The translations under genes were made by a program, and so were the position numbers. This document shows, piece after piece, positions 2,179-53,810 of a stretch of DNA of 55,242 bases (the stretch's first letter is position 1; each line of letters begins with the position of its first letter). This DNA is from a virus: the IMG/VR virus record IMGVR_UViG_3300047160_036265; one strand, 5' to 3'. Below the pieces are notes generated by a model. The model was given only the letters and a program-made list of their open reading frames with translations, was not told the origin of the DNA and did no database searches.

Positions 2179-2212
2179 CTCTTCCTCCTTTGACTTCCCC
2201 TATTATAGTTAG

Positions 2213-2230
2213 GCGTCTTGTGGTTGTAAA
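2213..2230 (-). promoter_or_regulatory. sigma-70-like promoter P1 (TTTACAACC-N-TATAAT)
   Basis: Minus strand reads TTTACA + 17 nt + TATAAT, about 30 nt upstream of the ATG at 2178. Confidence 0.65.
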
Positions 2231-2264
2231 CCACAAACAATAACGGGGCCGACGTGAAGAGAAG

Positions 2265-2337
2265 CGCCCCCAGGGGGAATCGAACCCCCGTAGTCACAGT
2301 TTTAGAGACTGCCGCTACACCACTCAGCTATGGGGGC
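2265..2337 (-). tRNA. amber suppressor tRNA, anticodon CUA, tRNA-Trp-like body
   Basis: 73-nt cloverleaf read by eye. Acceptor stem GCCCCCA/TGGGGGC, discriminator G. T-arm GGGGG-TTCGATT-CCCCC. Anticodon stem GCAGT/ACTGT with loop CUCUAAA, so anticodon CUA with U33 and A37. This is one base away from the tRNA-Trp loop CUCCAAA. CCA is not encoded. Has its own promoter. Confidence 0.7.
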
Positions 2338-2349: not shown

Positions 2350-2379
2350 ATTGTACGGCAGCAGGCGACTGGTTGTAAA
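2350..2379 (-). promoter_or_regulatory. promoter P2 driving the tRNA
   Basis: TTTACAACC + 18 nt + TACAAT. The -10 ends about 12 nt before the mature tRNA 5' end. Confidence 0.65.
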
Positions 2380-8067: not shown

Positions 8068-8809
8068 CGAAGCGTTCTCCGTACTCCTTCCATGCTTTCT
8101 CCTCCTGCGGAGACAGCTTGAATCCCAACTCCTTGACGACGCACTCGCGCAGGGCCTCGAAGCCCAGCTTGCACTTGGAAAAGGTCTTCACCCGTATGGG
8201 CAAAAAGTCGAGAAGGTACTGGTAATAGCGATGGTCCTTGAGGCGAATATATTTCGCCATCTCCCCTAGCGTTTTGAAATGGGGCAGTTCAATCGGCCTG
8301 GTGCTGAAACCCGGATCGAGGGCATATTTCACCCGCCCGGCCTTGTGGAAATCCAGAAAACGCTTGCAGTCGTTGTCAATATCATCGGGGGTCTTGAACG
8401 CCTTGGTCCCCAGCTTCTTGCCCGCCCCCAGCGTGGTTGCCGATCCGGTAATGCTGGTGGCCTCAAGCTCGTTGACGAGGCAAACACCCGACATCTGGCC
8501 CATGCGGTGGTAGTCATTCATGTCCAGAATCCAGTTCTGCTGCAAGTCTACCACCACGAGGCCGTATTCGACGGGTCGCAGGCCAGCGTAAGGACAATAG
8601 CACCAGGCCATCGGAGACTTCTGCTTGCGGCCCTTCTTGTAGTCCTCCAGCATCTCGTACCAGCCACGCACAACGTCGTGGACGTGGATGGGGTCTTTAA
8701 GGGCGATGCCAATATGATCGACCGCCCAGGGCATCATATTGGTCCACCGGCACATGCGATGTTCCTTACCGTTCTCCTCCCTGAGTGTGAAACCGATAGC
8801 ACCGCCCAT
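8060..8809 (-). CDS. hypothetical protein (about 249 aa)
   Basis: Internal ATG (MGGAIGF...) with GAAGGGAG Shine-Dalgarno. The track start is GTG inside the upstream gene. Confidence 0.5.
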   Translation of the reverse strand: MGGAIGFTLREENGKEHRMCRWTNMMPWAVDHIGIALKDPIHVHDVVRGWYEMLEDYKKGRKQKSPMAWCYCPYAGLRPVEYGLVVVDLQQNWILDMNDYHRMGQMSGVCLVNELEATSITGSATTLGAGKKLGTKAFKTPDDIDNDCKRFLDFHKAGRVKYALDPGFSTRPIELPHFKTLGEMAKYIRLKDHRYYQYLLDFLPIRVKTFSKCKLGFEALRECVVKELGFKLSPQEEKAWKEYGERFDD

Positions 8810-12261: not shown

Positions 12262-12290
12262 ATTCTACTGGCGGGTTTTGGGATTGTAAA
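12262..12290 (-). promoter_or_regulatory. promoter P3
   Basis: TTTACAATC + 17 nt + TAGAAT. Confidence 0.6.
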
Positions 12291-12291
12291 C

Positions 12292-12702
12292 TCAGATTAC
12301 CCGCTTGTCAACGATCAACGCGACGTGGGTGCGCTTGCTCCAGAGGAAGCTCTGGTACAGATAGACACGATCCCGCTCCGGCTCCTGGCAGGCCACGATG
12401 TCACCGTGGTAACTGCGGGGGTCGATCCGCACCAGCCGCACCGGACCCTCCGGGTACATGAGTACAGCCAGCCGCCACAGGCCGGTCTTGCTCTTGTCGT
12501 AGCCCAGGACCGTGCCCTTCTTGCAGCGGTTGCGGATCACCAGGCCGACCACGTTGCCCGGACGGAAGATGCGCAAGACCTTCTCGACCTCGCATAACTC
12601 GCTGAAGCGGCTGGTGTTGCAGTTGACCAGGGTATCGTCCACGTCGCGCTCAAGCTCCCGGCGGGCCTGCTTGTGGGACAGGAATTGGGTAAGCGTCTGC
12701 AT
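12292..12702 (-). CDS. hypothetical protein (136 aa) with DVDDT motif (possible HAD-like)
   Basis: Internal ATG (MQTLTQF...) with AGGAGGA Shine-Dalgarno. The DxDxT motif is suggestive only. Confidence 0.45.
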   Translation of the reverse strand: MQTLTQFLSHKQARRELERDVDDTLVNCNTSRFSELCEVEKVLRIFRPGNVVGLVIRNRCKKGTVLGYDKSKTGLWRLAVLMYPEGPVRLVRIDPRSYHGDIVACQEPERDRVYLYQSFLWSKRTHVALIVDKRVI

Positions 12703-20711: not shown

Positions 20712-20740
20712 ATCTTACTGCTGCGGCTACCCGTTGTAAA
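20712..20740 (-). promoter_or_regulatory. promoter P4
   Basis: TTTACAACG + 17 nt + TAAGAT. Confidence 0.6.
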
Positions 20741-21110: not shown

Positions 21111-22127
21111 TCAGTTCACGTTGAGTTTGTCGCAAAAACGCTCGGCCACGTCAAATACCACGTCAAACTCTTTGAGTCCGTCCACGAGGTTGCGGGGAAA
21201 TATCGAGCTTCCGTGCAGAGCGCCCAGAAGACCCGCCAGCATCGACCCGTTACTGTCCGTGTCGCCGCCCGCCGATACCACGTCGTACAGCGACTCGATG
21301 CTAAGCGGGTTTCGCACGAAGAACATATAGGTGAAGGGCAGGGAGTCGTAGATGTAGCAACTGCCCTTCAAGTCGGTGACGATCTTGCCGGCGTCGTATT
21401 CCTCGTACTGGTAGAGCAACTTCATGCGGGCGTGCAGGTCGTCGTCGCCCTCATCGGCGCTTTTCTTGAATCGCTTGTCCTTGCCCATCAGGGCGGCACC
21501 GACCACGCAGTTGATAAAGGAGTCCACCCGAAAGTCGGCGGGGTCGCTGGTCAGGCATTTGAAAATTGCGAATGCCTGGCACAACCCACTTTGGACTGCC
21601 ATGCGGGCGTTATGGGTCATGCGGGTGTAGTTTTCAATGTCCTGCACGCTCTGACCCCAGGCCGGCTCCTCGCACTGCGGGTTGGTGATCGCCATGTATG
21701 CGCCTAGGGGCGCAATCTTCATGGGGATACCGTTGCCGGTGCCACGTTTGGGTTCCTTGGTCTTGCCGGAAGTGGTCCAGGGTACGCCTTGGGCCAGGCG
21801 AGCCACGGCCTCCTTGGTGGTCTTGCCCCAGCCCCGGACGCTCTTCTTATATTCCTCGACGTGCCAGGCAGCGATGGCATTCAGGTCCAGGCAGCCTGTC
21901 TGAATGATACCCTCGGCGGTAGCCTTGGTCAACTGCCAGTCATCGGTGGTGGTGCCCCGATGGTCGTCATCGAAATACTTGTGGCTGGAGCAGTCGAGGT
22001 AGTCGGTGATGCGCCCGTAGCGCTTCTGAATGCCCTCCAGGGTGTTGCTCTCGGTGGGCTTGCCCAGAGCATCGCCAATAGCAATGCCCAGGAACATGCC
22101 AGTAATACGGTCACGAGTAATCGTCAT
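21111..22127 (-). CDS. ADP-ribosylglycohydrolase (ARH/DraG family)
   Basis: N-terminal RDRITGMFLGIAIGDALGKPTE and C-terminal GGDTDSNGSMLAGLLGALHG, the ARH family Mg-binding signatures. Confidence 0.8.
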   Translation of the reverse strand: MTITRDRITGMFLGIAIGDALGKPTESNTLEGIQKRYGRITDYLDCSSHKYFDDDHRGTTTDDWQLTKATAEGIIQTGCLDLNAIAAWHVEEYKKSVRGWGKTTKEAVARLAQGVPWTTSGKTKEPKRGTGNGIPMKIAPLGAYMAITNPQCEEPAWGQSVQDIENYTRMTHNARMAVQSGLCQAFAIFKCLTSDPADFRVDSFINCVVGAALMGKDKRFKKSADEGDDDLHARMKLLYQYEEYDAGKIVTDLKGSCYIYDSLPFTYMFFVRNPLSIESLYDVVSAGGDTDSNGSMLAGLLGALHGSSIFPRNLVDGLKEFDVVFDVAERFCDKLNVN

Positions 22128-22657: not shown

Positions 22658-24073
22658 CTAACCAGTTTTCTCCGGCAACGGAAGGGTGACAATAAATTCG
22701 CTGCCCTCCCCCAACTTGCTGGTGACGGTAATGGTGCCGCTATGGGCCTCCACAATAGAGCGGACCAAGCTCAGACCGATACCCATACCGCTACCATTTT
22801 GGGTATCAACGATTTTGTGAGCCTGCACGAACAAGTCAAAAATATGGGGCAGGATGTCTTCGGGGATGCCGGGGCCGTTGTCTGTGACCTTGATCTCAAT
22901 GATGGCCTTGATGACCTGGACGGTAAGGCTTATAAGACTGCCGCTAGGTGCAAATTTAAGGGCGTTGCCGATCAAGTTAAAAAACACCTGCTGCCAGCGG
23001 GTGGGGTCGGCATAGATGAGCAAGGGTTCTGCCGGGATGCGCACCTTGAGAATTTGATTTTTCTTTTCGGCGGTAATATAAAGCGTTTCCAGCGCGTTGC
23101 GAACGGCGTGTTGCAGGATCATATCCTGCTTGTGAATCGGCAAGCGGCCCGTGGTGATCCGGGATACGTCGAGCAGGTCATCTACCAGGCGGGTGAGATG
23201 GACGGCTTGCCGCTCAATAATATCCAGGTGCCTCTGAGTGTCGATACCTTTTCGCAGAACCGGCAGCGAAGTGAAAATCGGCGCAAGCGGGTTCCGCAGT
23301 TCGTGGCTCAGCATGGCGATGTACTCGTCCTTGCGATTGTCCTCTGTGCGCAGTTTTTCTTCGGCCTGCTTGCGCTTGGTGATCTCCTCGGAGAACATGA
23401 TGATGCCGCCGATCTCGTCCACCGAACAGTACCAGGGACGCTTTTCCCAGCGCAGCCAGTGGACCATGCCGTTGGGGCGCTCAATATAGTCCTCGTCGCT
23501 GGAGACAGTTTCACCGCCCAGCGCCTTATAAATCGCCGTCTTCCAGCGTTCGGGGATTTCCGGGAATACGTCAAAGTGCCGTCTGCCGATAAGCGAGCGG
23601 CCAGCCTCGCGCTCGGCTGGAAAGAAGTCAACGAGCCAGCGGCGACTAACCGCCACATAGCGCAACTCAGTATCCAAGATGGCGATGGCGGACGGCGAGT
23701 GTTCGATGAGGAGGTTCAGAGTAGTGCGCAGGCGGTTGTAGTCAGTGATGTCATTGTTGACTTCGACAACTTGTACGGACTCGCCCTTGGTGTAAAGGGC
23801 CTGATGGCTGGCAACGGTGAGCCGGCGTCCGTCCTTGCGGGTGTGGATAAGTTCCCCGCTCCACCTGCCGTCGCGCAGAATAGTGGCGGCAATATCCTCG
23901 GCGGGAAGGGCGTGGAAGATCGTTTTGAGGAGTGAATGACTGATCTGGCCAACCGCCTCCTCCTTGGTGAAGCCGTACAGCAGGGCCGCTCCGGCGGACC
24001 AAAACTGGATACGACCGTCGATGTCTCGAATTAACACGTTAGCCACATCGAGAACATCACTCACCGATTTCAT
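22658..24073 (-). CDS. PAS-domain sensor histidine kinase (471 aa)
   Basis: Two PAS-like segments, the HisKA H-box SHELRNPL, and HATPase N/G boxes (NLIGNALKF, DNGPGI, GSGMGIGL). Confidence 0.8.
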   Translation of the reverse strand: MKSVSDVLDVANVLIRDIDGRIQFWSAGAALLYGFTKEEAVGQISHSLLKTIFHALPAEDIAATILRDGRWSGELIHTRKDGRRLTVASHQALYTKGESVQVVEVNNDITDYNRLRTTLNLLIEHSPSAIAILDTELRYVAVSRRWLVDFFPAEREAGRSLIGRRHFDVFPEIPERWKTAIYKALGGETVSSDEDYIERPNGMVHWLRWEKRPWYCSVDEIGGIIMFSEEITKRKQAEEKLRTEDNRKDEYIAMLSHELRNPLAPIFTSLPVLRKGIDTQRHLDIIERQAVHLTRLVDDLLDVSRITTGRLPIHKQDMILQHAVRNALETLYITAEKKNQILKVRIPAEPLLIYADPTRWQQVFFNLIGNALKFAPSGSLISLTVQVIKAIIEIKVTDNGPGIPEDILPHIFDLFVQAHKIVDTQNGSGMGIGLSLVRSIVEAHSGTITVTSKLGEGSEFIVTLPLPEKTG

Positions 24074-26056: not shown

Positions 26057-26086
26057 ATTGTACAGCCGGAACGAGGCGGTTGTAAA
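26057..26086 (-). promoter_or_regulatory. promoter P5 (leaderless rnlA-like transcript)
   Basis: TTTACAACC + 18 nt + TACAAT. The predicted start site coincides with the A of the ATG. Confidence 0.6.
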
Positions 26087-31241: not shown

Positions 31242-31270
31242 ACTGTACCGCCGCTGACCCCGGTTGTAAA
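31242..31270 (-). promoter_or_regulatory. promoter P7
   Basis: TTTACAACC + 17 nt + TACAGT. Confidence 0.55.
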
Positions 31271-31599: not shown

Positions 31600-33225
31600 T
31601 CACGCCGCAAATTCCACGAGGTAGCGAAGCTCGAACTGCTCCCGGCTGAAGATGATCCACTCGTTGTTCATGACCTGGGAGTGACCGCCCTTGCCGAAGA
31701 CGCAGTGATGCCCAGCCGGCGGCGAGGTATAACCCCGTGGGCCGGGGGCGACGTGCGGACGGCCCAGGGCCACGTCACCAGCGAACATGAAAGCTTCACG
31801 GCCCCGAACGGAACCACCGCCGGACGACCAGTAGCTTCCACGCAGGGACGTGTAGCCGGCGGACTTTTTCCAGTCGTCCGCCCAATACAATCCCGGCCCG
31901 AACATGGCCCCGGTGATGACCACGCCGACCAACTGGTGCGGCAGGCGCAGGTTTTCACGGAGGATGCCGGTGACGTTCACGGAACGGGTTCCGTGGAACA
32001 AGAGGCCGGTGTTGCTCTCCCGGAAGCGGCGGATGTCGTTGTTATCTTGCAAATCCGCCCGCTCGGCAGGCTGGAACAGGGGCCGCTCGTGAATCGTGGG
32101 CCGGCTGGCGACGATCTTTTCCTGGCTGCCGACCAGCTTGGCCCGGTCGCCGGTGCGCTCGACTCGCCACGCATTCTTGATGCGCATGGCACCGACGCCT
32201 CCGTGACGGTTGGCGGTGGCACGAGGCCACCAGCCATAGAGCCACTTGCCCAGGTCGGTCTTCGGGTCGATCCACTCCATCCACACCGGCATCCCGCCGA
32301 AGGGGTCGTGCTGGTGGGACACGTCATCGACGGCAGCGGCAACACCCAGAGCCGCCTCGAACGCATCCAGGTCGGCCTGCCACAGCAGAATATTGCTGGT
32401 ATTGAGAATCCACTCCTGGGGCGGGCAGTGGAGCCGCTTTTTCTTCGGGATGCGACCGTACATGAGCGCCGTCAGGTGGTTCAAGTCGGCATCGGCCACC
32501 TGATCGTCCACGTTGTCACCCACGACGATGAGGCGCTTCTGGGCTTCGGTGAGGAAGTCACGGGCCTCATCAATCGCCGCCTGAGTGGGGATCGAGTCGT
32601 CGGCCATGCTGCCACGGGTATATTGCACCGTGGCCACGTTCAGGTCACGCAGCAGAGAATGGGTCTGGCTGTCCACCGGACGGCCCGCCGCCTTGATGAC
32701 CTTCTTCTTGGCGCTCTTCTTGTCGTCGGGCTTATCATCCGGTTTGGAATCGGGCTTCTTGGGAGCGCCTTCGCTGTGTTTGATGGTACGGGCATCCGGC
32801 AGGCCGGTGCTACGGGTGGCCATGCTGCGGACGAGGTAGCAGTCCTTGCCGGCACGGGCACGCAACACCCGCTTGCTGGCGACCGTAACCCACTCGCCCC
32901 GCTTGTCGTTCTTGTCGTGCAACTGGCTGGCGAACTCCCGCTGGGCGTCCGACTCACTGGAGCAAACCACGAACTGGAAGTTGGGGTTCTTGGCCCCGGT
33001 GCGCCCCCACTCGAAGTACACAGCCCACTGGCCGCTCGTCTTATGCTTGACGATGGCCCCGTGGTAATACTTGTTGGAGTCCTTGCCGTCCTGCGTGAAG
33101 CAGCCCATGTCTGCGATCTTGCAGTTGTCGAAATCGCCGTCCGTAGTGGCGGGCGGGCCGAAGCACTGCCAGTCGTTCGGGCCGGACCCGTTAGGGTAGG
33201 TGTTCTTTTCGATCTTCGATCCCAT
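31600..33225 (-). CDS. PARP-like ADP-ribosyltransferase (WGR domain plus H-Y-E catalytic domain; about 541 aa)
   Basis: N-terminal WAVYFEWGRTG (WGR). C-terminal LLFHGTRSVNVTGIL, GPGLYWADDWKKSAGY and NEWIIFSREQFELRYLVEF, matching the PARP H-G-S/T, Y and catalytic-E blocks. ATG with GGAGA Shine-Dalgarno, downstream of P8. Confidence 0.8.
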   Translation of the reverse strand: MGSKIEKNTYPNGSGPNDWQCFGPPATTDGDFDNCKIADMGCFTQDGKDSNKYYHGAIVKHKTSGQWAVYFEWGRTGAKNPNFQFVVCSSESDAQREFASQLHDKNDKRGEWVTVASKRVLRARAGKDCYLVRSMATRSTGLPDARTIKHSEGAPKKPDSKPDDKPDDKKSAKKKVIKAAGRPVDSQTHSLLRDLNVATVQYTRGSMADDSIPTQAAIDEARDFLTEAQKRLIVVGDNVDDQVADADLNHLTALMYGRIPKKKRLHCPPQEWILNTSNILLWQADLDAFEAALGVAAAVDDVSHQHDPFGGMPVWMEWIDPKTDLGKWLYGWWPRATANRHGGVGAMRIKNAWRVERTGDRAKLVGSQEKIVASRPTIHERPLFQPAERADLQDNNDIRRFRESNTGLLFHGTRSVNVTGILRENLRLPHQLVGVVITGAMFGPGLYWADDWKKSAGYTSLRGSYWSSGGGSVRGREAFMFAGDVALGRPHVAPGPRGYTSPPAGHHCVFGKGGHSQVMNNEWIIFSREQFELRYLVEFAA

Positions 33226-33261
33226 GACTTTCTCCAAGGGGTGTTGAGGATTCTGGTTATG

Positions 33262-33290
33262 ATATTACATCGGCAACGGGCAGTTGTAAA
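33262..33290 (-). promoter_or_regulatory. promoter P8 (PARP-like gene)
   Basis: TTTACAACT + 17 nt + TAATAT. Confidence 0.6.
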
Positions 33291-35274: not shown

Positions 35275-35459
35275 ATATCACCAGTAATACCGAGAAGCCG
35301 GGCCACCTGTTCTTTGCCGCCGTTCATCGGCAACCCAGCGGCATCGGTGACAAGTTCAACCAGCGCCCGGTCGTATTCGCTGTTTTCCCCATGCTCGGAC
35401 TTGAGATCACGAGCCAGTTTGATGAGCCGTTCCACGGTGACAGTCTTGTTCTGGTCCAC
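35271..35459 (-). CDS. small helix-rich protein (62 aa), GTG start
   Basis: GTG with GGGGAG Shine-Dalgarno. Preceded by a roughly 285-nt leader transcribed from P9. Confidence 0.4.
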   Translation of the reverse strand: MDQNKTVTVERLIKLARDLKSEHGENSEYDRALVELVTDAAGLPMNGGKEQVARLLGITGDI

Positions 35460-35709
35460 AAGTCTCCCCAGCCAACGTGAGCCAGCCGGGGCTGCTCCTT
35501 TCTGAGTTTAAGAGTGCGGCGTCCTTGGCGGTTTTGACCACTTGCCCGATAGTTAAGCGAGCATCCCGTGGCTGGCTTGCGGGCCAATACCCCAGGTACT
35601 CGTCGGGAGCCAAAGAGCAAACGAACCGCAACTCGCTCGCTCCCGGTGGCAGTGCTGCTACGCTAGGCTTCTTCACCCCAGCCGCTTCTGTAGCCGCCGC
35701 TCTTGGGGC

Positions 35710-35922
35710 CTAGTTGACATTCCCCGATTCTACGTCGGGATTCTTCGGTTGTAAAGCATCATTGACGTGCGGCTCACACCAACAGCCGTGGATGCGGATG
35801 CCTCCGCAGTTACAACAATATTGGTTGAGGAAGCCCCGGATGAATTCGAGTCGGTCTTCGGGGCGGAAGTGCTTCTGCCGTTCCAGAAACTCATCGTAAA
35901 GCTGCTTGGCTGACTCCAGCAT
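35710..35922 (-). CDS. Cys-rich small protein (70 aa)
   Basis: CCNCGGIRIHGCWCEPH motif. ATG with GGAGGGG Shine-Dalgarno. Confidence 0.5.
   Translation of the reverse strand: MLESAKQLYDEFLERQKHFRPEDRLEFIRGFLNQYCCNCGGIRIHGCWCEPHVNDALQPKNPDVESGNVN
35727..35755 (-). promoter_or_regulatory. promoter P9 (inside the 3' end of the upstream gene)
   Basis: TTTACAACC + 17 nt + TAGAAT. Confidence 0.55.
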
Positions 35923-36562
35923 GATCCCCTCCGATCTGGTTCGGGACTATGGCCTGTTCCATCCAGTGAACGGAAGTCTGGACGTGGTTGGGGCGAACAT
36001 ATTTGGCGACGTGACGGGCGAAATCTCCATAAGCGAAGCCCTGGCAGGTCCGCACCACATAACCCTCGCAGGTATCGCCAAAGCAAGACCGGCGGGGCCA
36101 GAGCGATTTGATGGCCTTTTCGTCCCAGATGCCTCGGTACAGTACAGGAACGGTAGGAATGTCAAAAAGTCCAGCCCACTCCACCGTCTCATCCCAGGCC
36201 AGGCAGCCGTTGCTGCCATCATATACGCCGATCAGGTAAAAATACGCTGTGAGCCGGTCGTAGAAAATGCTGTGCTTGGCGTAGACGTTTTCGCCGCAAA
36301 GCCGCCAGCCCTCCGGGATGTTGTGTCGGATCGAGGCGTGGAACTGCTTGAGGAGATTGCGAGACGGGTGGTTCTTGGAGTTGAGGGACCGGGCGTGGTA
36401 GTGGATGCAATACATGGACGTGCATTCACCGTCCATTTTTTCCGTCACCACAACCTCTTGGCCTGCAAAATGATCCACGTCGGCCAGAACCTTGTCGTCC
36501 CGGTCGGATTTCTCGCTCCAGGGCAGGTGCGGTGTTCGGGGATATTTGTACAGGCCGTTCAT
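35891..36562 (-). CDS. RNA ligase family protein (PF09414-like; 223 aa)
   Basis: N-terminal YKYPRTPHL, motif I EKMDGE (KxDG), motif III GENVYAKH, motif IV EGYVVR, motif V KYVRP. Confidence 0.7.
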   Translation of the reverse strand: MNGLYKYPRTPHLPWSEKSDRDDKVLADVDHFAGQEVVVTEKMDGECTSMYCIHYHARSLNSKNHPSRNLLKQFHASIRHNIPEGWRLCGENVYAKHSIFYDRLTAYFYLIGVYDGSNGCLAWDETVEWAGLFDIPTVPVLYRGIWDEKAIKSLWPRRSCFGDTCEGYVVRTCQGFAYGDFARHVAKYVRPNHVQTSVHWMEQAIVPNQIGGDHAGVSQAALR

Positions 36563-36583
36563 GACCGTTCTCCTCAGCCTAGT

Positions 36584-37396
36584 TTACTGTCCGGCGGGCT
36601 GAGTTGTTAAGTCCCGTTCACGCACGATGGGCCGGTCAACGCTCCAGTGTTCCGGCAGGAATTGGGGGTCCATCGTCTCGATGAAGTGCGCCCGCCACAT
36701 TTTCACAAACGCATCCATGCTGCCGTAAGTTTCGCTGATTTTACCAACCACCGTGGGGCCATGCTCGGCATAGTCCTCGGTATAAACAACGGATTCCAGC
36801 GAATCGGCACGCTCAATATCCTCCAGGGTGATGTCGTGCTTCTGATAGAAGTCGCGCAAGGTCTGAAGCAGTTCCTCGCGCCGACCAGGAGGAATACGGT
36901 CCCAATGTTTTGCCAGGGCGCAGGCGTGCTTTTTCAATTTAACAATGGCTTTATCGCAATACCAGCCGGTGCCGGTCAGGGGAATCTGATGCTCAACGGC
37001 CAACTTTTCCTTCACCCTGGTAGCTACTTCCTCATAACGGTCGTGACAGGCCACACACATGAGGAGAACGTCATGATAGTTGTGGTCCTTGAGGACCGCC
37101 GGGAAGTAACGACGGTAGCAATAGGGGATGATATGATGCCGGGTGAGTTCCACCATCGACCCGCAGACGACACATTCGTTGCGCTTGCTGGTCAGATAAT
37201 ACTGATCGCCACTATGGCCAGGGCCGTTTGGCTGGAAGCGCAGTTGAATTGTCGGCGGGCTGTCCTTCAGCTTGTCGGCAAGGCCCCGCTCCAAGTACCA
37301 GTCGATCTTGTCCTGGTTGCAGTGGAACATGATTTCGCCCTCCGGGCTAAGGACGTGGCAGTTCCCGTATAATTTGCCCTTCAGTGGCCGTGTCAC
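36584..37396 (-). CDS. HNH-motif protein (270 aa), GTG start
   Basis: CVVCGS...LTRHHIIPY...CVACH (HNH-like). GTG immediately after the upstream TAG stop. Confidence 0.5.
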   Translation of the reverse strand: MTRPLKGKLYGNCHVLSPEGEIMFHCNQDKIDWYLERGLADKLKDSPPTIQLRFQPNGPGHSGDQYYLTSKRNECVVCGSMVELTRHHIIPYCYRRYFPAVLKDHNYHDVLLMCVACHDRYEEVATRVKEKLAVEHQIPLTGTGWYCDKAIVKLKKHACALAKHWDRIPPGRREELLQTLRDFYQKHDITLEDIERADSLESVVYTEDYAEHGPTVVGKISETYGSMDAFVKMWRAHFIETMDPQFLPEHWSVDRPIVRERDLTTQPAGQ

Positions 37397-38395
37397 CTAT
37401 ATACTCCGTTTCCTCGCCGCATTCAGCCAGGACAGGTAGAACTTCTCCATGTGAATGTCAATGAAGGCGTCGTCCCGGCCCCCTTCGACCTTACGGTAAG
37501 GGGCAAAAACCTCGTCCCAAAGGGCCTGGCTCTCCTCACAATATAAGGCCAGGAAGTCCTTCTCTTGGCAGGGTTCCATGTCGCGCAGATTGCACGAACG
37601 GTCGAAGAACTTGATGACCTTGGCTTCCCACGAGACGGACTGCAAATGCTCCCGGTCCATCTTCTTGCGTTCGGCCCGGCGCAACTTCGACCCCTTGCTG
37701 GGGTTGGTCAGTTCCAGCACCAGCTTCAAAACGTCCTCGCCCGCTGTACTGATAATGGCCGAGTGCGGAACGCCGGGGCAGTCCTCCACAACATCATGGA
37801 GCCACGCCGCCTTGCCCATGCGGAGCCACTGGTCCAGAGGGAGATCACGCCGCCACCAGTTGATGCGATCAAATACCTGCGACGGGTGCAGGATGAAATC
37901 GCCCCCACCATATTTCCGCTTCTGGCCTTCATGGGCGCAATAAGCCAGGAGAATGGTATTTCGCAGGCTCTTGTCCATGAACATGCCATGAACGAACATA
38001 TGACAGTTGACGCAGGTGCCGTCGCCGCTGAGGTTCCAACAAGTGTTGCGCCAATCGTGGTTGCACGCCAGCATCTCGGTGAGACGGGTGTGGGCCATCC
38101 GTTCGGCGGCGATCCAGCCCCCGGCCTTGTCGCCGGAGCTTCCGCCCATCACGCTGAAGCGGGCGCGATGGATGGCCTTGTTGTGCCAAAAATCGAGGGC
38201 GGTGATATGTTCTGGGACCGGCACGAACACGGTAATGCCGCAGTTGGGATCGTTGGGGTTCTCGCTCAGAACGTATTCCAGCCCCAGCTTGCGGTTATAG
38301 GAGCAGCGGATGTCAGCATCCTCCGGCCAATCGAGTTGGCACTGGTATTTACCGCCTGGGGGTGGACTGTTGATGATGGGAACGAGGGGTTTCAT
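37397..38395 (-). CDS. RelA/SpoT-type HD-domain protein (small alarmone hydrolase-like) with N-terminal Cys-rich domain (about 332 aa)
   Basis: AHEGQKR...FILHP, AAWLHDVVEDC and FDRSCNLRDM, matching the (p)ppGpp hydrolase HD motifs. ATG (MKPLVP...) overlaps the upstream TAA (TAATG). Confidence 0.7.
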   Translation of the reverse strand: MKPLVPIINSPPPGGKYQCQLDWPEDADIRCSYNRKLGLEYVLSENPNDPNCGITVFVPVPEHITALDFWHNKAIHRARFSVMGGSSGDKAGGWIAAERMAHTRLTEMLACNHDWRNTCWNLSGDGTCVNCHMFVHGMFMDKSLRNTILLAYCAHEGQKRKYGGGDFILHPSQVFDRINWWRRDLPLDQWLRMGKAAWLHDVVEDCPGVPHSAIISTAGEDVLKLVLELTNPSKGSKLRRAERKKMDREHLQSVSWEAKVIKFFDRSCNLRDMEPCQEKDFLALYCEESQALWDEVFAPYRKVEGGRDDAFIDIHMEKFYLSWLNAARKRSI

Positions 38396-38787
38396 TAGTT
38401 GCTCCATGAGGCGAAGATACGTTTGACCGCCAAGACACAGTTGCCTGGGGCTAGGACGGTCAGGACAGGTACGTTGGACGGCATCCGCAGGGTTGAGTGA
38501 ATATCGACCTGATAATCCGCCACAGAAGCGAATACCGGGCAGGCGATGACGATATGAGGGGTATTGGCGGCAACCATGCCGGATAAAGCGTTTGACCGCC
38601 CAGCAACCGTGACGAAGACCACCTGATCCTCATTTTCAAATCTGCCGAGAATTTCGAGTAGTTCCCTGGGGCTTTTATGGGCGGAACAGTAATGGATGGA
38701 AACAGGGAAAGATTCCCGAAAGGGGTTGGCGATTTGTTCAACGTGGTCCTTGTCCTTCTCGGAACCAGCGATAATAACGAGTATCAT
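38395..38787 (-). CDS. PurE-like (AIR carboxylase family) protein (130 aa)
   Basis: IIAGSEKD...SAHKSP...AGRSNALSGMVAANT...IACPV, matching PurE signature blocks. ATGA-coupled. Confidence 0.65.
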   Translation of the reverse strand: MILVIIAGSEKDKDHVEQIANPFRESFPVSIHYCSAHKSPRELLEILGRFENEDQVVFVTVAGRSNALSGMVAANTPHIVIACPVFASVADYQVDIHSTLRMPSNVPVLTVLAPGNCVLAVKRIFASWSN

Positions 38788-39017
38788 TTGATAAGGTCCA
38801 ATAGAAATTCGGGGCTGTAGAGGGAAACCTCAAACCCCTTGCCTGTCAGTTCCATGAGCAGAATGCGGAGGTTCTGCGCCCGCTGCGGGCTGTCCTTCAT
38901 GATTTGCCGCACAAGCACCTTGGCTTCCTCGTCTACTTCTTGTTCCGAGAAGTAGGGGCCGTGCTTGGTGCAGGCGAAGGTTTCGACCAGGACGATCCAG
39001 TATTCTTTGAGTTTCAT
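38784..39017 (-). CDS. hypothetical protein (77 aa)
   Basis: ATGA-coupled. Confidence 0.45.
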   Translation of the reverse strand: MKLKEYWIVLVETFACTKHGPYFSEQEVDEEAKVLVRQIMKDSPQRAQNLRILLMELTGKGFEVSLYSPEFLLDLIK

Positions 39018-39511
39018 CCTTGGAACCTCCGCAGGTCCGCAGGAACATCCTCGTAATTGACAACCACACCCTTTTCCTTCTGGATGGCACGAATGGTTTC
39101 GTGGGTATATTGCTGCCGCTTACCCATGCCGCTGAGATCGACGCCGGCTGCGAGGAAGCGCCCGACCGCATATTGTTCCACCGCCTTCTGCCACCGCCAA
39201 TAATAGCGAATGGCTTGGTGGACGCTGGCGTAGCGGCAGCGGTCGTAGAAGTCGTCCTCACGGTGGCTGGGCATGGACTCGTGTTCCCACTCTCCCAGCT
39301 TGTTAAGACAGCCGAAGGTGCCCTTGATGGCCCAAAGCTCCGGCTTGTCCTTATCGCGCCGGCCCATGTTGCGAACATGGACGCCGTGCATTTTCTGGTC
39401 GTCGGAAAAGAACTCCCACCAGAACGGAACGCCGCCCAGCAGAGGCTCAGGGCCGAGATAAAACTCGCTGGCCAACTCCAGCAGGATGCTATCAGAAACT
39501 TTGTCCGCCAT
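39014..39511 (-). CDS. hypothetical protein (165 aa)
   Basis: Protein-like ORF that overlaps the upstream gene. Confidence 0.5.
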   Translation of the reverse strand: MADKVSDSILLELASEFYLGPEPLLGGVPFWWEFFSDDQKMHGVHVRNMGRRDKDKPELWAIKGTFGCLNKLGEWEHESMPSHREDDFYDRCRYASVHQAIRYYWRWQKAVEQYAVGRFLAAGVDLSGMGKRQQYTHETIRAIQKEKGVVVNYEDVPADLRRFQG

Positions 39512-40142
39512 TCTGGTTCTCCAGGGCCAGAATCAGCCGGTCCACGCCAATGGCCCAGCCAATCCCGCAGTCATAGCGCCCGCCGCCCGCCACCTGCTTT
39601 TGGGCACCCAAGCTAGGCACTTCTACCTCGAAGCCGTCTTCAACATAATAGGACAAGCCACGCTTGACGCTCGCGTTGAGGACGTAATTCTCCAGCCCGA
39701 TTGTACGGAGAAACAGGTCCAGAAGTTTAGTCATTTCCTCCTTACTGGCGGTTCCGCCCAGGTTCTCCACCCCGAATTGCCAGAATTCCCGGTAACGACC
39801 GGCCTGGGGACGGTCATAACGGTAACACCGGCTGAGGTAGAAGACCTTGACGGGTTTGGGCAGGACTTTGCTCCAGTCGTTCTTAAATTCCGCCTGGACG
39901 ATGGCGGTGACTTCCGGGATGAGGCAGATTTCCCTGCCGCCCAGGTCGTCAAAGACGTACATCTGGCCCAGGATTTCAGGCCCGGCCTTGTCGGTGAAGA
40001 CTTCCGAAGAGGCCAACAGCGAGGGGAAGAACTCCTGATAGCCTTCAGCAATGGCGGTGTAGCGCAGGGTGTCGGTCGCGTCCCGAAACGCCTTGGCCTT
40101 GGCCCCGAACAGGTGGCGGGTGCCTCTAATCGAGTTTGACAT
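39492..40142 (-). CDS. HisRS-like class II aminoacyl-tRNA synthetase catalytic-core protein (216 aa; no anticodon-binding domain)
   Basis: GTRHLFG...MYVFDDLGGREICLIPEVTA (motif 1 region), CYRYDRPQAGRYREFWQFG (motif 2), GGGRYD (motif 3). Confidence 0.7.
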   Translation of the reverse strand: MSNSIRGTRHLFGAKAKAFRDATDTLRYTAIAEGYQEFFPSLLASSEVFTDKAGPEILGQMYVFDDLGGREICLIPEVTAIVQAEFKNDWSKVLPKPVKVFYLSRCYRYDRPQAGRYREFWQFGVENLGGTASKEEMTKLLDLFLRTIGLENYVLNASVKRGLSYYVEDGFEVEVPSLGAQKQVAGGGRYDCGIGWAIGVDRLILALENQNGGQSF

Positions 40143-41091
40143 CTCCGCTCATCAACCCTTCTCGAATGCGTTCCAGCCCCCGCTCCCGCAGTTGCCGGAC
40201 TCGTTCCTTGGTCAAGCCCAAGTCCTTGCTAATCTCCTTCAAGGTACGCTTTGTGCCGCCATTCTTCAAGCCAAACCACTGTTCGATGACGTATCGCTTG
40301 CGGTCGTCTTCATCGCCCAAGGTCTTCATCAGGCGGGCCACGTTCTTCTTGACAAGCTCCTTCCCCTCCTCATAGTCCCGCAGGTCTTCGTCGCTGGTGT
40401 CCAGGCGGGTGTCATAAATCCCGTCATCAAAACCAGTCACAAACCGCTCATTAAAGGTTCGCTCACCGGCCAGATCACGGGTGAAGTTGTTAAGCAGAAC
40501 CCAGGTGGCGTAGGTGGAGAATTTGAAACCACGGGTCCAATCGAAGCAGTCCACGGCCTTAACGATGTTCATATAAGCATCGGCAAGCAAGTCGTGCATG
40601 AGGCTGTGGGAGCGGTAAAAGTCCGTCCGCTTCCGCAACACCTGAGCGGCGAGGCGGGTGTTGGAACACACGAGTTGGTGCTTCACAACCTCGGCTTGTT
40701 TCAGACATAACTCAACCCGCTCAATAGATTTCAGCGCCCGCTCGTGTTGCTCCGGGGTCGGGGCCTTGGAGCGCCGCAAGGTCCGGGTCAGACGACGGGC
40801 TTTGTACTTGAGGAAGTTATATTTGCGAAACAAATGCCGCTCCTGGTCTTTATCCAGCAGCGGCTCCTGGTATAATGGCATCAGTTCGCTAGGAATATTC
40901 TGGTGCTTGAGCTTGGCGACTTCCTGGCGCTTCTCGTTGAATTCATCCATCCGGGGCATCTCAGCCAGGATTTCCGCCTGCATAGAGCGGAGATCGAAGT
41001 CCGGCGACTTGAATATCTTGAACTTCGGGCTGCTCACATAACTCACCAATTCTTTCGCGCGCTGCGCAATGTCATCCTTTACTGCCAACAT
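40126..41091 (-). CDS. sigma-70 family sigma factor (321 aa)
   Basis: Region 2 DLLADAYMNIVKAVDCFDWTRGFKFSTYATWVL. Region 4 TLKEISKDLGLTKERVRQLRERGLERIR. AAAGGAGG Shine-Dalgarno. Own P10 promoter. Confidence 0.85.
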   Translation of the reverse strand: MLAVKDDIAQRAKELVSYVSSPKFKIFKSPDFDLRSMQAEILAEMPRMDEFNEKRQEVAKLKHQNIPSELMPLYQEPLLDKDQERHLFRKYNFLKYKARRLTRTLRRSKAPTPEQHERALKSIERVELCLKQAEVVKHQLVCSNTRLAAQVLRKRTDFYRSHSLMHDLLADAYMNIVKAVDCFDWTRGFKFSTYATWVLLNNFTRDLAGERTFNERFVTGFDDGIYDTRLDTSDEDLRDYEEGKELVKKNVARLMKTLGDEDDRKRYVIEQWFGLKNGGTKRTLKEISKDLGLTKERVRQLRERGLERIREGLMSGDVKLD

Positions 41092-41122
41092 GGTGCCTCC
41101 TTTCGGCAGTTACGCAGAACGA

Positions 41123-41152
41123 ATTATATGCTAAATCGAGATGGTTGTAAAG
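41123..41152 (-). promoter_or_regulatory. promoter P10 (sigma factor gene)
   Basis: TTTACAACC + 17 nt + TATAAT. Confidence 0.65.
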
Positions 41153-41168: not shown

Positions 41169-41576
41169 TTACGGAACGGGCACCAAGAAAGAGTTGAGCG
41201 CCCGGACGATATTCCGCACCTTATATCCCTTGGGGTGGTCCACGACCACCGTTATTTCCTGATCGGCCACGGCCCAGGGCTTGCCGGCGGCGTTGCTTTC
41301 GATGATGACGTAGACCATAGAGTTGTGGGTATAGCGGCGGCTATAACCCAGGCGGTCCCACAGTTCCTTGGCCTGCGGGGATTGGAAAATAAAAAACTCG
41401 TTGCGATCCAGCCTGGAGCGACCCCGCAAGCTAGGTGCGCCGTTAGGCGGGTCGTCATACTCCACCACCATTTCCGGCCAGTGGGCTTTGCACAGACCGA
41501 GAATGCCCTTCTCGATCTGTGCATATTTCTTGCCTTCCGGCCAGGTGTAGAGCAGATCGTAACCGCCGATTTCCAT
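41169..41576 (-). CDS. hypothetical protein (135 aa)
   Basis: ATG overlaps the upstream stop. Confidence 0.5.
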   Translation of the reverse strand: MEIGGYDLLYTWPEGKKYAQIEKGILGLCKAHWPEMVVEYDDPPNGAPSLRGRSRLDRNEFFIFQSPQAKELWDRLGYSRRYTHNSMVYVIIESNAAGKPWAVADQEITVVVDHPKGYKVRNIVRALNSFLVPVP

Positions 41577-43138
41577 TATTTACCGCAGGTTGGGTCGTAT
41601 TTGTGCATCATCTGATTGATGGTAGCCAGGTCCAGCGGTTTGACCAGGAAATCATGGAATCCGGCGTCCTGGGCACGCTGGCGGTCCTTCTCCTGGCCGA
41701 AGCCGGTGACGGCGATGACTTTTGTTTCCGGCACGAGGCGGATCAACTCCTGGCAGACCTTGTAGCCGTCCATGTAGGGCAGGCCAATGTCCAGCAGCAC
41801 GATATTGGGTACGAACTCGGTCGCGCTCTTCAGGGCCGCTGGGCCATCGTTGGCCACCCACACGTCGTAGCCCTGCATCCGCAGCATGGCCACCATGCTG
41901 TCCGCCGCATCCACATTGTCATCCACGACGAGGATGCGGCAGTCCTTGGTAGGGGCGATGGGGAATGACGCAGGTTCCCCGGTATCCTCCTTGCGTGGTG
42001 AACCGCCCTCGATGGATTCCGGTACGGGAACCTCGTCGCCCACATCGCTTACGGGGAATTCGATGCTGAAGGTGGACCCCAGGTTGAGGCCCGGCGAATG
42101 AGCGGCAACGGTTCCTCCCTGAAGCTCCGTCAACTGCTTGACGAGGCTCAGACCTACTCCCAGACCGCCGTGGGTCTGGTATTCGCCCCGGCGCTCGGCC
42201 TGCACGAACAGGTCGAAAATACGGGGCAGCATGGTTTCGGAGATGCCGATGCCGGTATCCACGACTTCGATTTTTACCTTCTTCTGGTCATCCGAGAGGA
42301 GGCAGTTGAGACGGATTTTTCCACCCGGTTCCGTATATTTGGCAGCGTTGTTGAGCAAATTGGAAATCGCCTGCTCGACACGGGGCGCATCGCCCACCAT
42401 CCAGATCGCCTCGGACGGGATGGAAATGTATAAGGAGTGATAGCGGGTGTCGATGGCGGGCCGTGACTGGTCGATGGCGTTGGAAATGGCCCGCTGAAGC
42501 TGGACTGGCTCCTGCTTGATATTGATTTTGCCCCGGCTGATGCGGGCCATGTCCAGCAAGTCATCCAGCAACCGGCCCATATGCTTGACCTGGCGCTCGA
42601 TGATATTACGGTGGTCGCGCAGTACGGCGTCCTGGTTGCCGTCGCGCATCCGGGACACCTGGAGCGACGACAGGATTGGGGCCAGCGGGTTGCGCAGTTC
42701 GTGGGACAGAACGGCCAGGAACTCATCCTTGCGGCGGTCGGCCTCGGCCAGTTCGTCAATCCACTTCTTGCGTTCGCTGATGTCCCGAATAACGGCGACA
42801 ATCCCCTCCTGGTCGCCGTGGTTGAACTTGGACAGGGACATCTCGACGGCGAATTCCTCACCGTTACGACGCCGGCCCACCGTCTCGACCAGTGAGCCGA
42901 TCATGGGGCCTTCCCCGGTGGCCTTATAGTGGACGATACCCCGTGCCATCTCCTCCTGCATACGCAGCGGCACGAAGTCCGCACAGGCAACAACCTTGTT
43001 GACCATCTCCTCCTGCCGATAGCCGAACATCCGTTCCGCCGCCGGGTTGAAATGGGTGATGAGCAAGTCCTGGTTGGCGATGATGATGGCATCCTGGGCG
43101 CTGTCGAGGATGGCTTGCAACATGGCTATATCCTCCAT
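41576..43138 (-). CDS. hybrid sensor histidine kinase (PAS-HisKA-HATPase-REC; about 520 aa)
   Basis: H-box SHELRNPL, N/G boxes LLNNAAKY, DTGIGI, GGLGVGL. C-terminal receiver ILVVDDN...LLDIGLPYMDG...KPLD. TGATG coupling. Confidence 0.8.
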   Translation of the reverse strand: MEDIAMLQAILDSAQDAIIIANQDLLITHFNPAAERMFGYRQEEMVNKVVACADFVPLRMQEEMARGIVHYKATGEGPMIGSLVETVGRRRNGEEFAVEMSLSKFNHGDQEGIVAVIRDISERKKWIDELAEADRRKDEFLAVLSHELRNPLAPILSSLQVSRMRDGNQDAVLRDHRNIIERQVKHMGRLLDDLLDMARISRGKINIKQEPVQLQRAISNAIDQSRPAIDTRYHSLYISIPSEAIWMVGDAPRVEQAISNLLNNAAKYTEPGGKIRLNCLLSDDQKKVKIEVVDTGIGISETMLPRIFDLFVQAERRGEYQTHGGLGVGLSLVKQLTELQGGTVAAHSPGLNLGSTFSIEFPVSDVGDEVPVPESIEGGSPRKEDTGEPASFPIAPTKDCRILVVDDNVDAADSMVAMLRMQGYDVWVANDGPAALKSATEFVPNIVLLDIGLPYMDGYKVCQELIRLVPETKVIAVTGFGQEKDRQRAQDAGFHDFLVKPLDLATINQMMHKYDPTCGK

Positions 43139-43539
43139 CACCCCTGGTCAGGGGGCAGTTCCGTAAAGAAGTCCTCGGATTGCTCGACAACCTCTTGCCC
43201 CCCTTGTCGTGCAGCGAGTTTGTGACCCAGACGGAGCAGACCTAGCGCGATATGCGGAGGAAGGTTATGAACCTCCATTTGCAGGTCAATGCCCATAAGC
43301 TCGAACCTGGGCAGCAAGAGAACGAATTGCGGTTGCGGCCTCTTGCGCAACTCGGCCAGCAGTTGATCGGTTGTAGCCAACTCCAGGTCGAGTTGCAAGG
43401 GGTCTTTTCCCACAAGGACGTTCAGACGTTGCTGCAAGTCATGTGCCCGAACTTTGTAGCGGTACAAACGAAAAACCAGATAACCCCCCATCGCCGTGAG
43501 CAGCAGCGCCGTGAGGCTGGCAACTACGAGGTTGAACAT
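43138..43539 (-). CDS. membrane-anchored protein (about 133 aa)
   Basis: Internal ATG (MFNLVVAS...) with AAGGAGAGGG Shine-Dalgarno. N-terminal TM helix. Immediately upstream of the hybrid kinase. Confidence 0.5.
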   Translation of the reverse strand: MFNLVVASLTALLLTAMGGYLVFRLYRYKVRAHDLQQRLNVLVGKDPLQLDLELATTDQLLAELRKRPQPQFVLLLPRFELMGIDLQMEVHNLPPHIALGLLRLGHKLAARQGGQEVVEQSEDFFTELPPDQG

Positions 43540-43765: not shown

Positions 43766-44314
43766 TTAGAGGCGACGGATCACTTGGTTGACCAGCCTCT
43801 CACGCCACGAGAAATTGGTCCAATCCGGTGCCTTCTCGAATGAGAAGTCGTGAGGAAAAGCAGTGTATTTTACCACGCTGCCATCTCGTGTCAATAATAA
43901 TGGTTGCACGCCCTTCACAAATTCTTCATCCACGCTCACAACCCACGGCTCGACATATATGCCGTGCTGAGGCCGACAAGCCTGGCCGATGGTCAGATCG
44001 AGCATTTCATTTTGCGAAACCACGACCAAATGGCCGGACCACTTCCCTTCAGTATAACCATATCCCAGGCCAACGCTATAGGAACCGTCCGTCTGGAAAG
44101 CTTCTTCCAGAGCGGCGGTAGTGCGTGGTGCGCGTCCTTCGCTCATGCGCCTGACCAGCGGCTCATTATAAATAAGGGCCTTCACCGACAGCGGTTGAGC
44201 GGGGATTTTGAAAAAATGCAGCACGTCGAGGGCGACCCGACTGGCAAGAATGCAGCAATCGGGCCGGTGGTTGCATAGTACCTCCGGGATCAACGTCCGA
44301 AGCCGCTCCAACAT
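43766..44314 (-). CDS. hypothetical protein (about 182 aa)
   Basis: Internal ATG (MLERLRTL...) with AAGGGG Shine-Dalgarno. Confidence 0.5.
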   Translation of the reverse strand: MLERLRTLIPEVLCNHRPDCCILASRVALDVLHFFKIPAQPLSVKALIYNEPLVRRMSEGRAPRTTAALEEAFQTDGSYSVGLGYGYTEGKWSGHLVVVSQNEMLDLTIGQACRPQHGIYVEPWVVSVDEEFVKGVQPLLLTRDGSVVKYTAFPHDFSFEKAPDWTNFSWRERLVNQVIRRL

Positions 44315-49374: not shown

Positions 49375-49403
49375 AGTATACTCGCCAGCGAAGACGCTGT
49401 AAA
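49375..49403 (-). promoter_or_regulatory. promoter P14 (clpX)
   Basis: TTTACAGC + 17 nt + TATACT. Confidence 0.5.
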
Positions 49404-52230: not shown

Positions 52231-52259
52231 AAGGGTACTTTGAATCCTCGGAATTGTAA
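52231..52259 (-). promoter_or_regulatory. promoter P11 (weak -10)
   Basis: TTTACAATT + 17 nt + TACCCT. Confidence 0.4.
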
Positions 52260-52266
52260 AGCGGCT

Positions 52267-52935: not shown

Positions 52936-52964
52936 ACTATACGCCAATACTTGTGGGTGTAAAG
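52936..52964 (-). promoter_or_regulatory. promoter P12
   Basis: TTTACACCC + 16 nt + TATAGT. Confidence 0.55.
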
Positions 52965-53781: not shown

Positions 53782-53810
53782 ATTGTAGAACGGGACTTCA
53801 TCGTTGTAAA
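53782..53810 (-). promoter_or_regulatory. promoter P13
   Basis: TTTACAACG + 17 nt + TACAAT. Confidence 0.65.

Follow-up and report, generated by a model that had tools for sequence, protein, structure and literature searches.

A trimmed sigma-70-family factor and a T4-type promoter family in an uncultivated phage

INTRODUCTION

In the standard phage sigma cascade, a sigma factor made early switches the core RNA polymerase to later promoters. SPO1 gp28, phiEco32 gp36 and T4 gp55 reportedly bind the host core polymerase and read promoters unlike the host consensus; none of the three is known to drive its own gene, and T4 is not known to encode an RpoD-like sigma. In T4, early promoters are transcribed by unmodified host sigma-70 RNA polymerase as soon as infection begins, and their consensus extends past the standard sigma-70 elements (PMC2988021). 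RpoD-like, "more complete" sigmas have been described from jumbo phages of the T4-related group 2, as have sigma-70 genes from huge phages (PMC7824862; PMC7162821). Such genes are widely annotated in huge phages and almost never tied to promoters, promoter-level analysis being rare. Here we analysed a 55,242-nt stretch of viral DNA (IMG/VR record IMGVR_UViG_3300047160_036265; hereafter the window), which encodes a sigma-70-family factor behind one member of a repeated promoter family. An earlier annotation (the original prediction) had proposed that this factor activates its own gene and takes over a regulon of 13 promoters. Our analysis maps about 14 promoters in a phage that has not been cultivated. 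The sigma family is new at the family level, and the promoter class is a variant of the known T4-type kind.

RESULTS

The window encodes a sigma-70-family factor with regions 1.2, 2 and 4

The open reading frame (ORF) at 40126..41091 on the minus strand (ATG at 41091, TAG stop at 40126-40128) encodes a protein of 321 aa. Pfam searches matched PF04542 (Sigma70_r2) at aa 144-209 with 38.2 bits (cut-off 24) and PF04545 (Sigma70_r4) at aa 262-311 with 38.6 bits (cut-off 24.1). The best sequence relatives among solved proteins in PDB were SigA, RpoD and RpoS chains (best E 2.5e-20). Each aligned over regions 1.2-2 and again over region 4, the part in between remaining unmatched. With 32 homologues as input, AlphaFold2 gave a model (pLDDT 80.4) that starts with four short helices at the N-terminus, followed by one helix for region 1.2, a long one leading into region 2 and a four-helix region 4; a disordered acidic linker (aa 218-230) separates the helices of region 2.4 from those of region 4.1, at the place of the sigma-3 domain. 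When this model was searched against PDB with Foldseek, the top 50 matches were all sigma-A, sigma-70 or sigma-S chains from holoenzyme structures, with probability 1.0 and E down to 1.1e-5 for the top ones and with low global TM-scores (0.2-0.37) because the domains are arranged differently. Pfam, PDB sequence matches, the model and Foldseek thus concur that the ORF encodes a genuine phage sigma-70-family factor, and the original prediction had correctly named its regions 2 and 4.

The same prediction had called the protein full-length, which in the RpoD sense it is not. It comprises regions 1.2, 2 and 4 and lacks region 1.1 and the sigma-3 domain, neither Pfam r1_1 nor Pfam r3 giving a match in the protein. 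The RpoD/SigA equivalog thresholds were missed widely (80 vs 354 bits for TIGR02393, 71 vs 555 for NF004208 and 87 vs 384 for TIGR02997), and the superfamily-level model TIGR02937 was matched at 60.3 bits (threshold 42.9). Assignment to the ECF sigmas (group 4) was ruled out by the region 1.2-like segment (aa 75-103), which aligns to RpoD-family models. Among PHROG families, the general sigma family phrog_351 was matched at E 1.3e-21 and the late-sigma family phrog_234 merely at E 0.011.

We compared the DNA-contacting residues with those of solved group-1 sigmas only (E. coli numbering). The region 4.2 comparison, proposed with the original prediction as a guide to -35 specificity, gave a nearly identical recognition helix (TKERVRQ in the phage sigma, TRERIRQ in group-1 sigmas), and it is region 2.4 that differs. 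The refuting condition named there, identity of the region 2.4/4.2 residues, thus had a mixed outcome. Regions 2.3/2.4 read FSTYATWVLLNNFTR against FSTYATWWIRQAITR in group-1 sigmas; Y430, W433, T440 and R441 are kept, and region 2.4 (WVLLNNFTR vs WWIRQAITR) carries the changes W434V, R436L and Q437N. The equivalents of N383 and L386 are also retained. In group-1 sigmas the counterparts of the retained residues serve the capture of -11A and -7T and form the -35 helix. Within the phage family, P77, L78, L79, Q83, E84, H86, F88 and R89 of region 1.2 are invariant, as are T294, K295, E296, R297, R299 and Q300 of region 4 (32 members). Since the equivalents of Y430, W433, N383 and L386 and the -35 helix are kept, the phage sigma probably reads sigma-A-like promoters.

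A strand-specific promoter family in the window resembles T4 early promoters

A matrix built from 12 sites gave the consensus (t)GC-TTTACAAC(C)-N13-G-TAnAAT. A scan of the window with this position weight matrix found 14 sites on the minus strand, 12 strong and two weak, and none on the plus strand (Table 1); a mismatch scan found 10 vs 1 sites by strand, with 0.3 expected from shuffles. Every site is on the coding strand, with an ORF start 5-90 nt or a tRNA 12 nt downstream, and nearly all genes of the window are on the minus strand. The pattern TTTACA-N17-TAnnnT occurred 10 times against a single TTGACA counterpart, with none on the other strand. G at -13 was present in 9/12 strong sites, the sigma gene's own promoter being without it. 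Five orthologous sites in L004, the closest long relative, whose sigma is 73% identical, retained the -35 and -10 elements with diverged spacers, which is the footprint expected of working promoters. These results indicate that the promoter family is real, strand-specific and conserved.

The T4 genome offers the closest parallel. On the gene strand of its first 50 kb we counted 15 TTTAC[AT]-N17-TAnnnT sites (1.1 expected) vs one TTGAC[AT] site, and five TTTACA-N16-GTAnnnT sites vs 0.04 expected (for example gttgTTTACAACA...TGGTATTAT). The site at 8217, near map position 8.1, is presumably early promoter P8.1. G at -13 was found in 8/17 T4 sites. Like the window class, T4 early promoters have T at -33 in a -35 of TTTACA type, a spacer of 17 nt, often G at -13, and TAnnAT; in both, the consensus reaches past the hexamers and the sites are densely arrayed on the strand that codes for early genes. 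They differ in that T4 has G directly before TTTAC where the window family has GC, in that the window's -35 block extends to AAC(C), conserved beyond that of T4, and in the TGn extended -10 of the T4 "uber" promoters, which is absent from the window. T at -33 together with G at -13 therefore marks a T4-type early promoter and not a private sigma, because T4 has both with the host sigma. Of the 13-promoter regulon in the original prediction, the strand-specific family of about 13 sites does exist; its assignment to the phage sigma is not supported as stated, the signature being of T4 type.

The strict form of the motif, GCTTTACAACC-N13-GTANNAT, was found in 99 stretches of IMG/VR, many of them in large contigs that the family-specific search did not pick up as sigma carriers. 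Two strict-motif contigs, L208 and L199, are clear relatives of the window phage, with PARP, AAA, M50 and RNA ligase homologues in common. In the T4-like contig L227, one site precedes a gp55-like gene and another a gp44-like gene, both assigned by eye.

The class may be fired by the host holoenzyme

We favour, with moderate confidence and by analogy with T4, the reading that the window class consists of early promoters that the host primary-sigma holoenzyme would fire directly after infection, and that the phage sigma would be made as an early gene product and would not be the factor that defines the class. This reading is suggested because T4 shows the same signature, read by host sigma-70; because the strict motif occurs in IMG/VR contigs without a detected member of the sigma family; and because the sigma promoter has 11/12 matches to the bacterial consensus and the window holds early-type functions only. 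From features observed directly (the gene and its domains, the promoter family, its conservation and its resemblance to T4) we infer which holoenzyme acts and when. The phage sigma may use the same promoters too, in which case expression would be feed-forward or independent of host sigma-A; such joint use with the host sigma, with feedback, is possible because its DNA-contacting residues resemble those of sigma-A. If it were true, the phage sigma and this class would form a simple orthogonal sigma-promoter pair, and the phage would replace rather than redirect the housekeeping sigma.

Several observations weigh against a host-only reading. Counts of TTTACA-N16-GTAnnnT on the sigma's strand and on the opposite strand were 7/0 in the window (shuffle expectation 0), 4/0 in relatives with a sigma 62-73% identical, 2/0 in those at 51-53% and 12/1 in those at 33-42% (GC 32-54%; shuffle expectation 0.6). 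The motif is thus enriched in every sigma-bearing tier, across GC 32-59%, with no such enrichment in 1.24 Mb of phages with a different sigma (3/7; shuffle expectation 2.4) or in 1.15 Mb of Planctomycetota DNA (0/0). The association of G at -13 had a Fisher p of ~1e-10. The -35 helix TKERVRQ, invariant in the family and near that of group 1, would allow the phage sigma to read the same promoters. By inspection, TG at -15/-14 is absent from the sites in the window (0/12), in L004 (0/5) and in L007 (0/5), compared with 10/17 in T4; this loss counts here because a sigma without region 3.0 could not read TG. By themselves the counts would suggest that the motif tracks the sigma family, but they are no proof of it: the strict motif occurs in contigs without a detected member, T4 has the same signature, and the control phages were not T4-like.

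The strongest claim for the phage factor would be that the TTTACA class (TTTACAAC-N14-(G)TAnnAT) is its own regulon, with self-activation and takeover of about 13 units, host sigma-A giving the first transcripts at most. The co-occurrence of motif and sigma family across deep divergence fits this proposal, as do the invariant recognition residues and the absence of TG, which suits a sigma without region 3.0. The -35 block is moreover more strongly conserved than the -10, and further than in T4, and W434 is lost; strong -35 conservation plus loss of W434 is typical of alternative sigmas that require stringent promoters. Yet T4 has T(-33)/G(-13) without such a sigma, the dependence of its early promoters on host sigma-70 being proven (PMC2988021), and the strict motif occurs in contigs without a detected family member, T4-like phages included. 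Region 4.2 is almost as in group-1 sigmas, so that no new -35 specificity is predicted, and a promoter of this type at the sigma gene was seen in just two of about 12 lineages, the window and L004. We regard an own regulon as somewhat unlikely. A repeated, phage-specific-looking promoter beside a phage sigma gene is no evidence that the sigma reads it, as T4 uses the host sigma only.

In a further, doubtful proposal, the trimmed sigma-A-like factor would read the same T4-type promoters as the host, giving a loop started by the host and then self-sustaining. The promoters would have lost the TG element usable only by a region-3-bearing sigma, and the sigma gene would have gained a -35 of the class. 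Phage transcription could then continue after host sigma-A is disabled or limiting, and the adjacent phage hybrid histidine kinase might tune the loop. If this proposal were true, a conserved and portable sigma-promoter pair would extend across a deep huge-phage clade.

No second motif for the phage sigma was found in the window

Like SPO1 gp28, phiEco32 gp36 and T4 gp55, the phage sigma would be expressed early and would bind the host core; unlike with these factors, no distinct target motif was found for it. It might still redirect the host core to a different middle or late class outside the window, in the manner of SPO1 gp28 or phiEco32 gp36, with the TTTACA class read purely by the host. 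The changes W434V, R436L and Q437N in region 2.4 are compatible with such a role, and a late class would escape view in the window, which has no structural genes. On the other side, no second recurrent intergenic motif was present in the window or in the intergenic regions common with L004, and the residues for canonical -10 and -35 reading are kept. The sole other motif, GATTTTCCGAGAC, occurs three times and is confined to a single relative. Redirection is a serious but less likely option. For reference, the T4-late-like promoter motif is TATAAATA.

The three GATTTTCCGAGAC copies lie in consecutive intergenic regions of L005, a 586-kb NCBI contig (14601-14613, 15293-15305 and 17063-17075), and in no other locus; judged by sequence and position, they may be a lineage-specific regulatory site. 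Direct-repeat families of the window, considered as a second promoter class, proved to be chance matches in coding sequence. No clear covariation of region 2.4/4.2 residues with promoter variants was seen across three sigma subclades.

The promoter of the sigma gene is of the class type in two lineages

The -35 of the sigma gene, TTTACAACC, runs from 41151 to 41143 and its -10, TATAAT, from 41128 to 41123. The perfect promoter of the original prediction is present, although the 17-nt spacing assigned to it holds between the hexamers (TTTACA-N17-TATAAT), which is 14 nt after the 9-mer (TTTACAACC-N14-TATAAT). It has 11/12 matches to TTGACA-N17-TATAAT, the bacterial consensus. The exact form TTTACAACC-N14-TATAAT occurs twice in the window, at the sigma gene and at 2230-2202, with 0.00 expected by chance. 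In this sense the sigma promoter is, as had been claimed, a best match to the motif, though one of two; against the fuller family consensus it ranks 6th of 12, departing from the family at its flanks (AC not GC before the -35, A not G at -13). The leader between the -10 and the Shine-Dalgarno is about 19 nt. The Shine-Dalgarno itself, described earlier as ideal, is so in sequence and ends only 4 nt before the ATG; it is conserved as AAAGGAGG in L004 and as AAAGGGGG in L166.

Scored with the class matrix, the sigma-gene promoter reached 28.5 bits in the window and 26.6 bits in L004. Upstream of the sigma gene in L166, L168, L167, L005, L006, L007, L008, L009, L011, L012, L015, L016, L018 and L019, the class score was at most 9.5 bits. 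A class-type promoter at the sigma gene is thus not a trait of the sigma family. The best candidates in the other lineages were TTGACA, TTGCGT or TTGAGT followed by N17-18 and a TATAAT-like -10; the search that found them was biased towards TTGACA, so this contrast is merely suggestive. Taken at face value, such TTG-type promoters would suit an own regulon in which the host makes the sigma and the sigma makes the rest. As originally stated, positive autoregulation and takeover are unsupported, given the T4 signature, the occurrence of the motif beyond sigma carriers and the different promoters of most sigma genes.

A further site lies 2.7 kb upstream of the sigma gene on the coding strand (43867-43894, minus): TTGACA-N16-TAAAAT with TG before the -10 and 11/12 matches. 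It precedes the kinase genes and sits inside a weakly supported ORF call. This candidate host-type promoter could also feed the sigma operon.

The sigma family occurs on huge-phage contigs, with a planctomycete sigma as its probable sister

Family members of about 300 aa (300-325 aa) all sit on contigs with huge-phage gene content. At least 14 of the family-bearing contigs are IMG/VR viral contigs of 43-533 kb, and homologue contigs reach 586 kb with the same gene neighbourhood. A huge-phage origin is well supported because homologues occur on such contigs; the window alone gives no proof. Among deposited phage genomes, no relative with more than 32% identity to the sigma was found; a close cultured relative was likewise not found when deposited phages were searched with half the window by megablast and with two proteins by tblastn. 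No T4 core genes were found in the window. As in the group 2 jumbo and huge phages, a sigma-70-family gene is carried on a very large phage genome, no phage RNA polymerase genes occur in the sampled regions, and recruitment of the host core polymerase is presumed. Unlike the RpoD-like sigmas of jumbo phages, the window's family lacks region 1.1 and sigma-3 and is sister to a planctomycete sigma, not to RpoD.

In one-genome-per-species bacterial data, the great majority of cellular relatives belonged to a ~560-aa sigma found in Planctomycetota (Gemmatales, Pirellula, Kuenenia, Zavarzinella and Tundrisphaera). Identity to the phage sigma was 34-39% over about 290 aa (query ~10-30 to 310, genomic loci), and metagenomic members of the planctomycete type reached 40% identity with E down to ~1e-50. 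The planctomycete protein has the TKERVRQ helix and the segment before region 1.2, likewise lacks region 3 and falls below all RpoD cut-offs. It carries an extra N-terminal ~250 aa, and the phage proteins start just before the common segment. In a rough neighbour-joining tree the phage family formed its own clade, sister to the planctomycete clade. The sequences suggest an ancient capture from a Planctomycetota lineage or a common origin with it, and the kinship hints weakly at the host. What emerges is a separate sigma family (regions 1.2, 2 and 4), found on huge-phage contigs alone, whose planctomycete sister group hints at host range or at where the gene came from. In R. baltica, RB12251 is listed as a 567-aa "specialized sigma factor", with RB6780 as the separate rpoD (PMC2754498); RB12251 is a possible counterpart of the ~560-aa sigma, linked to it by length alone.

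One might ask whether the window is non-viral, a piece of planctomycete chromosome or plasmid on which a cellular gene encodes an alternative sigma, accompanied by the regulon of that sigma. The closest cellular relatives are indeed Planctomycetota proteins, and no capsid, tail or terminase gene is present in the window. Against this, the ~300-aa members all occur on huge-phage-like contigs, the phage sigmas form their own clade, the genes of the window lie nearly all on one strand and most of its proteins have no family match. Unlike in the phage contigs, the promoter motif is not enriched in genomic DNA of Planctomycetota, being absent from the 1.15 Mb searched. We consider a cellular origin of the window highly improbable.

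In the same planctomycete DNA (loci L087-L165), TTGACA-N17-TAnnnT occurred once vs 1.4 by shuffle and TTTACA-N17-TAnnnT once vs 0.6. Consensus sigma-70-type promoters were thus not detectable in this 1.15 Mb by simple count.

Gene neighbourhood and other features of the window

The sigma gene is probably the first gene of one operon of overlapping genes, to judge from the gene map. The run downstream comprises a HisRS-like fragment, genes for proteins of 165 and 77 aa, a PurE-like gene, an HD_4-domain gene and a gene for a 270-aa protein. It is followed by an RNA ligase gene (35891-36562) behind the weak site at 36610. The HisRS-like fragment (39492-40142, minus) is a 216-aa class II histidyl-tRNA-synthetase core without the anticodon-binding domain, and its 17-nt overlap with the 3' end of the sigma gene suggests translational coupling.

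Table 1 Coordinates of the sigma-gene features, neighbouring genes and promoter-family sites in the window
Feature	Position	Strand	Basis or note
Sister promoter gcTTTACAACG-N14-cTACAAT	53782..53810	minus	matrix scan
Sister promoter gcTTTACACCC-N13 (last base G)-TATAGT	52936..52963	minus	matrix scan
Weak sister site gcTTTACAATT-N14 (last base G)-TACCCT	52232..52260	minus	matrix scan
Sister promoter gcTTTACAGCG-N14 (last base G)-TATACT, before ClpX-like gene	49375..49403	minus	ortholog in L004
Upstream neighbours: hybrid PAS/histidine kinase-receiver (41576-43141) and 135-aa lineage-specific gene (41169-41576)	41169..43141	minus	gene map
Sigma operon promoter acTTTACAACC-N14-aTATAAT	41123..41151	minus	-35 and -10 kept in L004, spacer diverged
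Shine-Dalgarno AAAGGAGG, then CACC, ATG 4 nt on	41096..41103	minus	read from sequence
Sigma region 1.2-like segment (aa ~75-103, PLLDKDQERHLFRKYNFLK)	40783..40869	minus	TIGR02997 positions 12-144, jointly with region 2
Sigma region 2 (aa 144-209), contains FSTYATWVLLNNFTRD = regions 2.3/2.4	40465..40662	minus	PF04542, SigA alignments, invariant columns
Sigma region 4 (aa 262-311), recognition helix LTKERVRQL	40159..40308	minus	PF04545
Co-directional overlapping genes downstream of sigma	36584..40142	minus	gene map, Pfam
Weak sister site acTTAACAACT-N15 (last base G)-TAAACT, before RNA ligase gene	36581..36610	minus	weak ortholog in L004
Sister promoter gcTTTACAACC-N14 (last base G)-TAGAAT, then conserved non-coding stretch	35727..35755	minus	matrix scan
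Sister promoter aaTTTACAACT-N14 (last base G)-TAATAT, before PARP/WGR gene	33262..33290	minus	orthologs in L004, L005, L006
Sister promoter gcTTTACAACC-N14 (last base G)-TACAGT	31242..31270	minus	matrix scan
Sister promoter gtTTTACAACC-N15 (last base G)-TACAAT, before Rnl1-like gene	26057..26086	minus	matrix scan
Sister promoter gcTTTACAACG-N14 (last base G)-TAAGAT	20712..20740	minus	matrix scan
Sister promoter agTTTACAATC-N14 (last base G)-TAGAAT	12262..12290	minus	matrix scan
Sister promoter ggTTTACAACC-N15 (last base G)-TACAAT, before tRNA(CUA) 2264-2337	2350..2379	minus	matrix scan
Sister promoter ggTTTACAACC-N14-cTATAAT, second perfect match	2202..2230	minus	before AlgH-like (DUF179) gene 1657-2178

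On the upstream side, 17 nt separate the end of the 135-aa gene from the -35 of the sigma promoter, and the cassette of kinase, small ORF and sigma is retained in L004 and L166 only. The 135-aa protein was considered as an anti-sigma or partner and set aside: it has four homologues only, no Pfam or PDB sequence match and no fold match at E <= 0.001, its best being CENP-N at E 0.0095. The kinase gene has a 74-nt stretch in common (78% identity) with a second PAS/histidine kinase gene at 22658-24073 (minus).

Beyond the second kinase, the window encodes a ClpX-like ATPase, an M50 protease, PARP/WGR and ADP-ribosylglycohydrolase proteins, an AAA ATPase, two RNA ligases, a GatB/YqeY domain, PRPP-synthase-like and AlgH-like proteins and many unmatched proteins, that is, non-structural, early-type functions. 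Members of the AlgH-like (DUF179) family often carry the annotation of putative transcriptional regulator. The PARP-type ADP-ribosyltransferase with WGR (31600-33237) and the ADP-ribosylglycohydrolase (21111-22127), both on the minus strand, are conserved across relatives. T4 ADP-ribosylates RNA polymerase and so favours its early promoters, and by analogy the pair in the window may be relevant to early promoter use.

Two family promoters have unusual arrangements. At 12283-12311 (minus) a canonical TTGACA-N17-TACAAT overlaps the family promoter at 12290 in tandem, its -10 lying inside the family -35 (TTTACAAT). At the 26057-26086 promoter, the ATG of the Rnl1-like RNA ligase gene stands 6 nt past the -10, and an ATG 5-8 nt past the -10 is also seen at L007 7161 and 14300 and at L008 7433. 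This short distance suggests leaderless mRNAs from several family promoters.

Behind the promoter at 35755, a stretch of about 270 nt (~35455-35720, minus) is highly conserved with L004 15030-15305. It is probably a non-coding RNA because its indels are not multiples of three; no Rfam match was found, and its fold energy was unremarkable (z = -1.0). A tRNA with anticodon CUA (amber suppressor; tRNA-Pyl by ARAGORN, Rfam tRNA 60 bits) lies at 2264-2337 (minus) behind a family promoter. TAG recoding through this tRNA was rejected, as no long ORF of the window requires TAG as sense. Eleven genes of the window, the sigma gene included, end in TAG, and reading through the TAG of the sigma gene would lengthen its protein by 27 aa.

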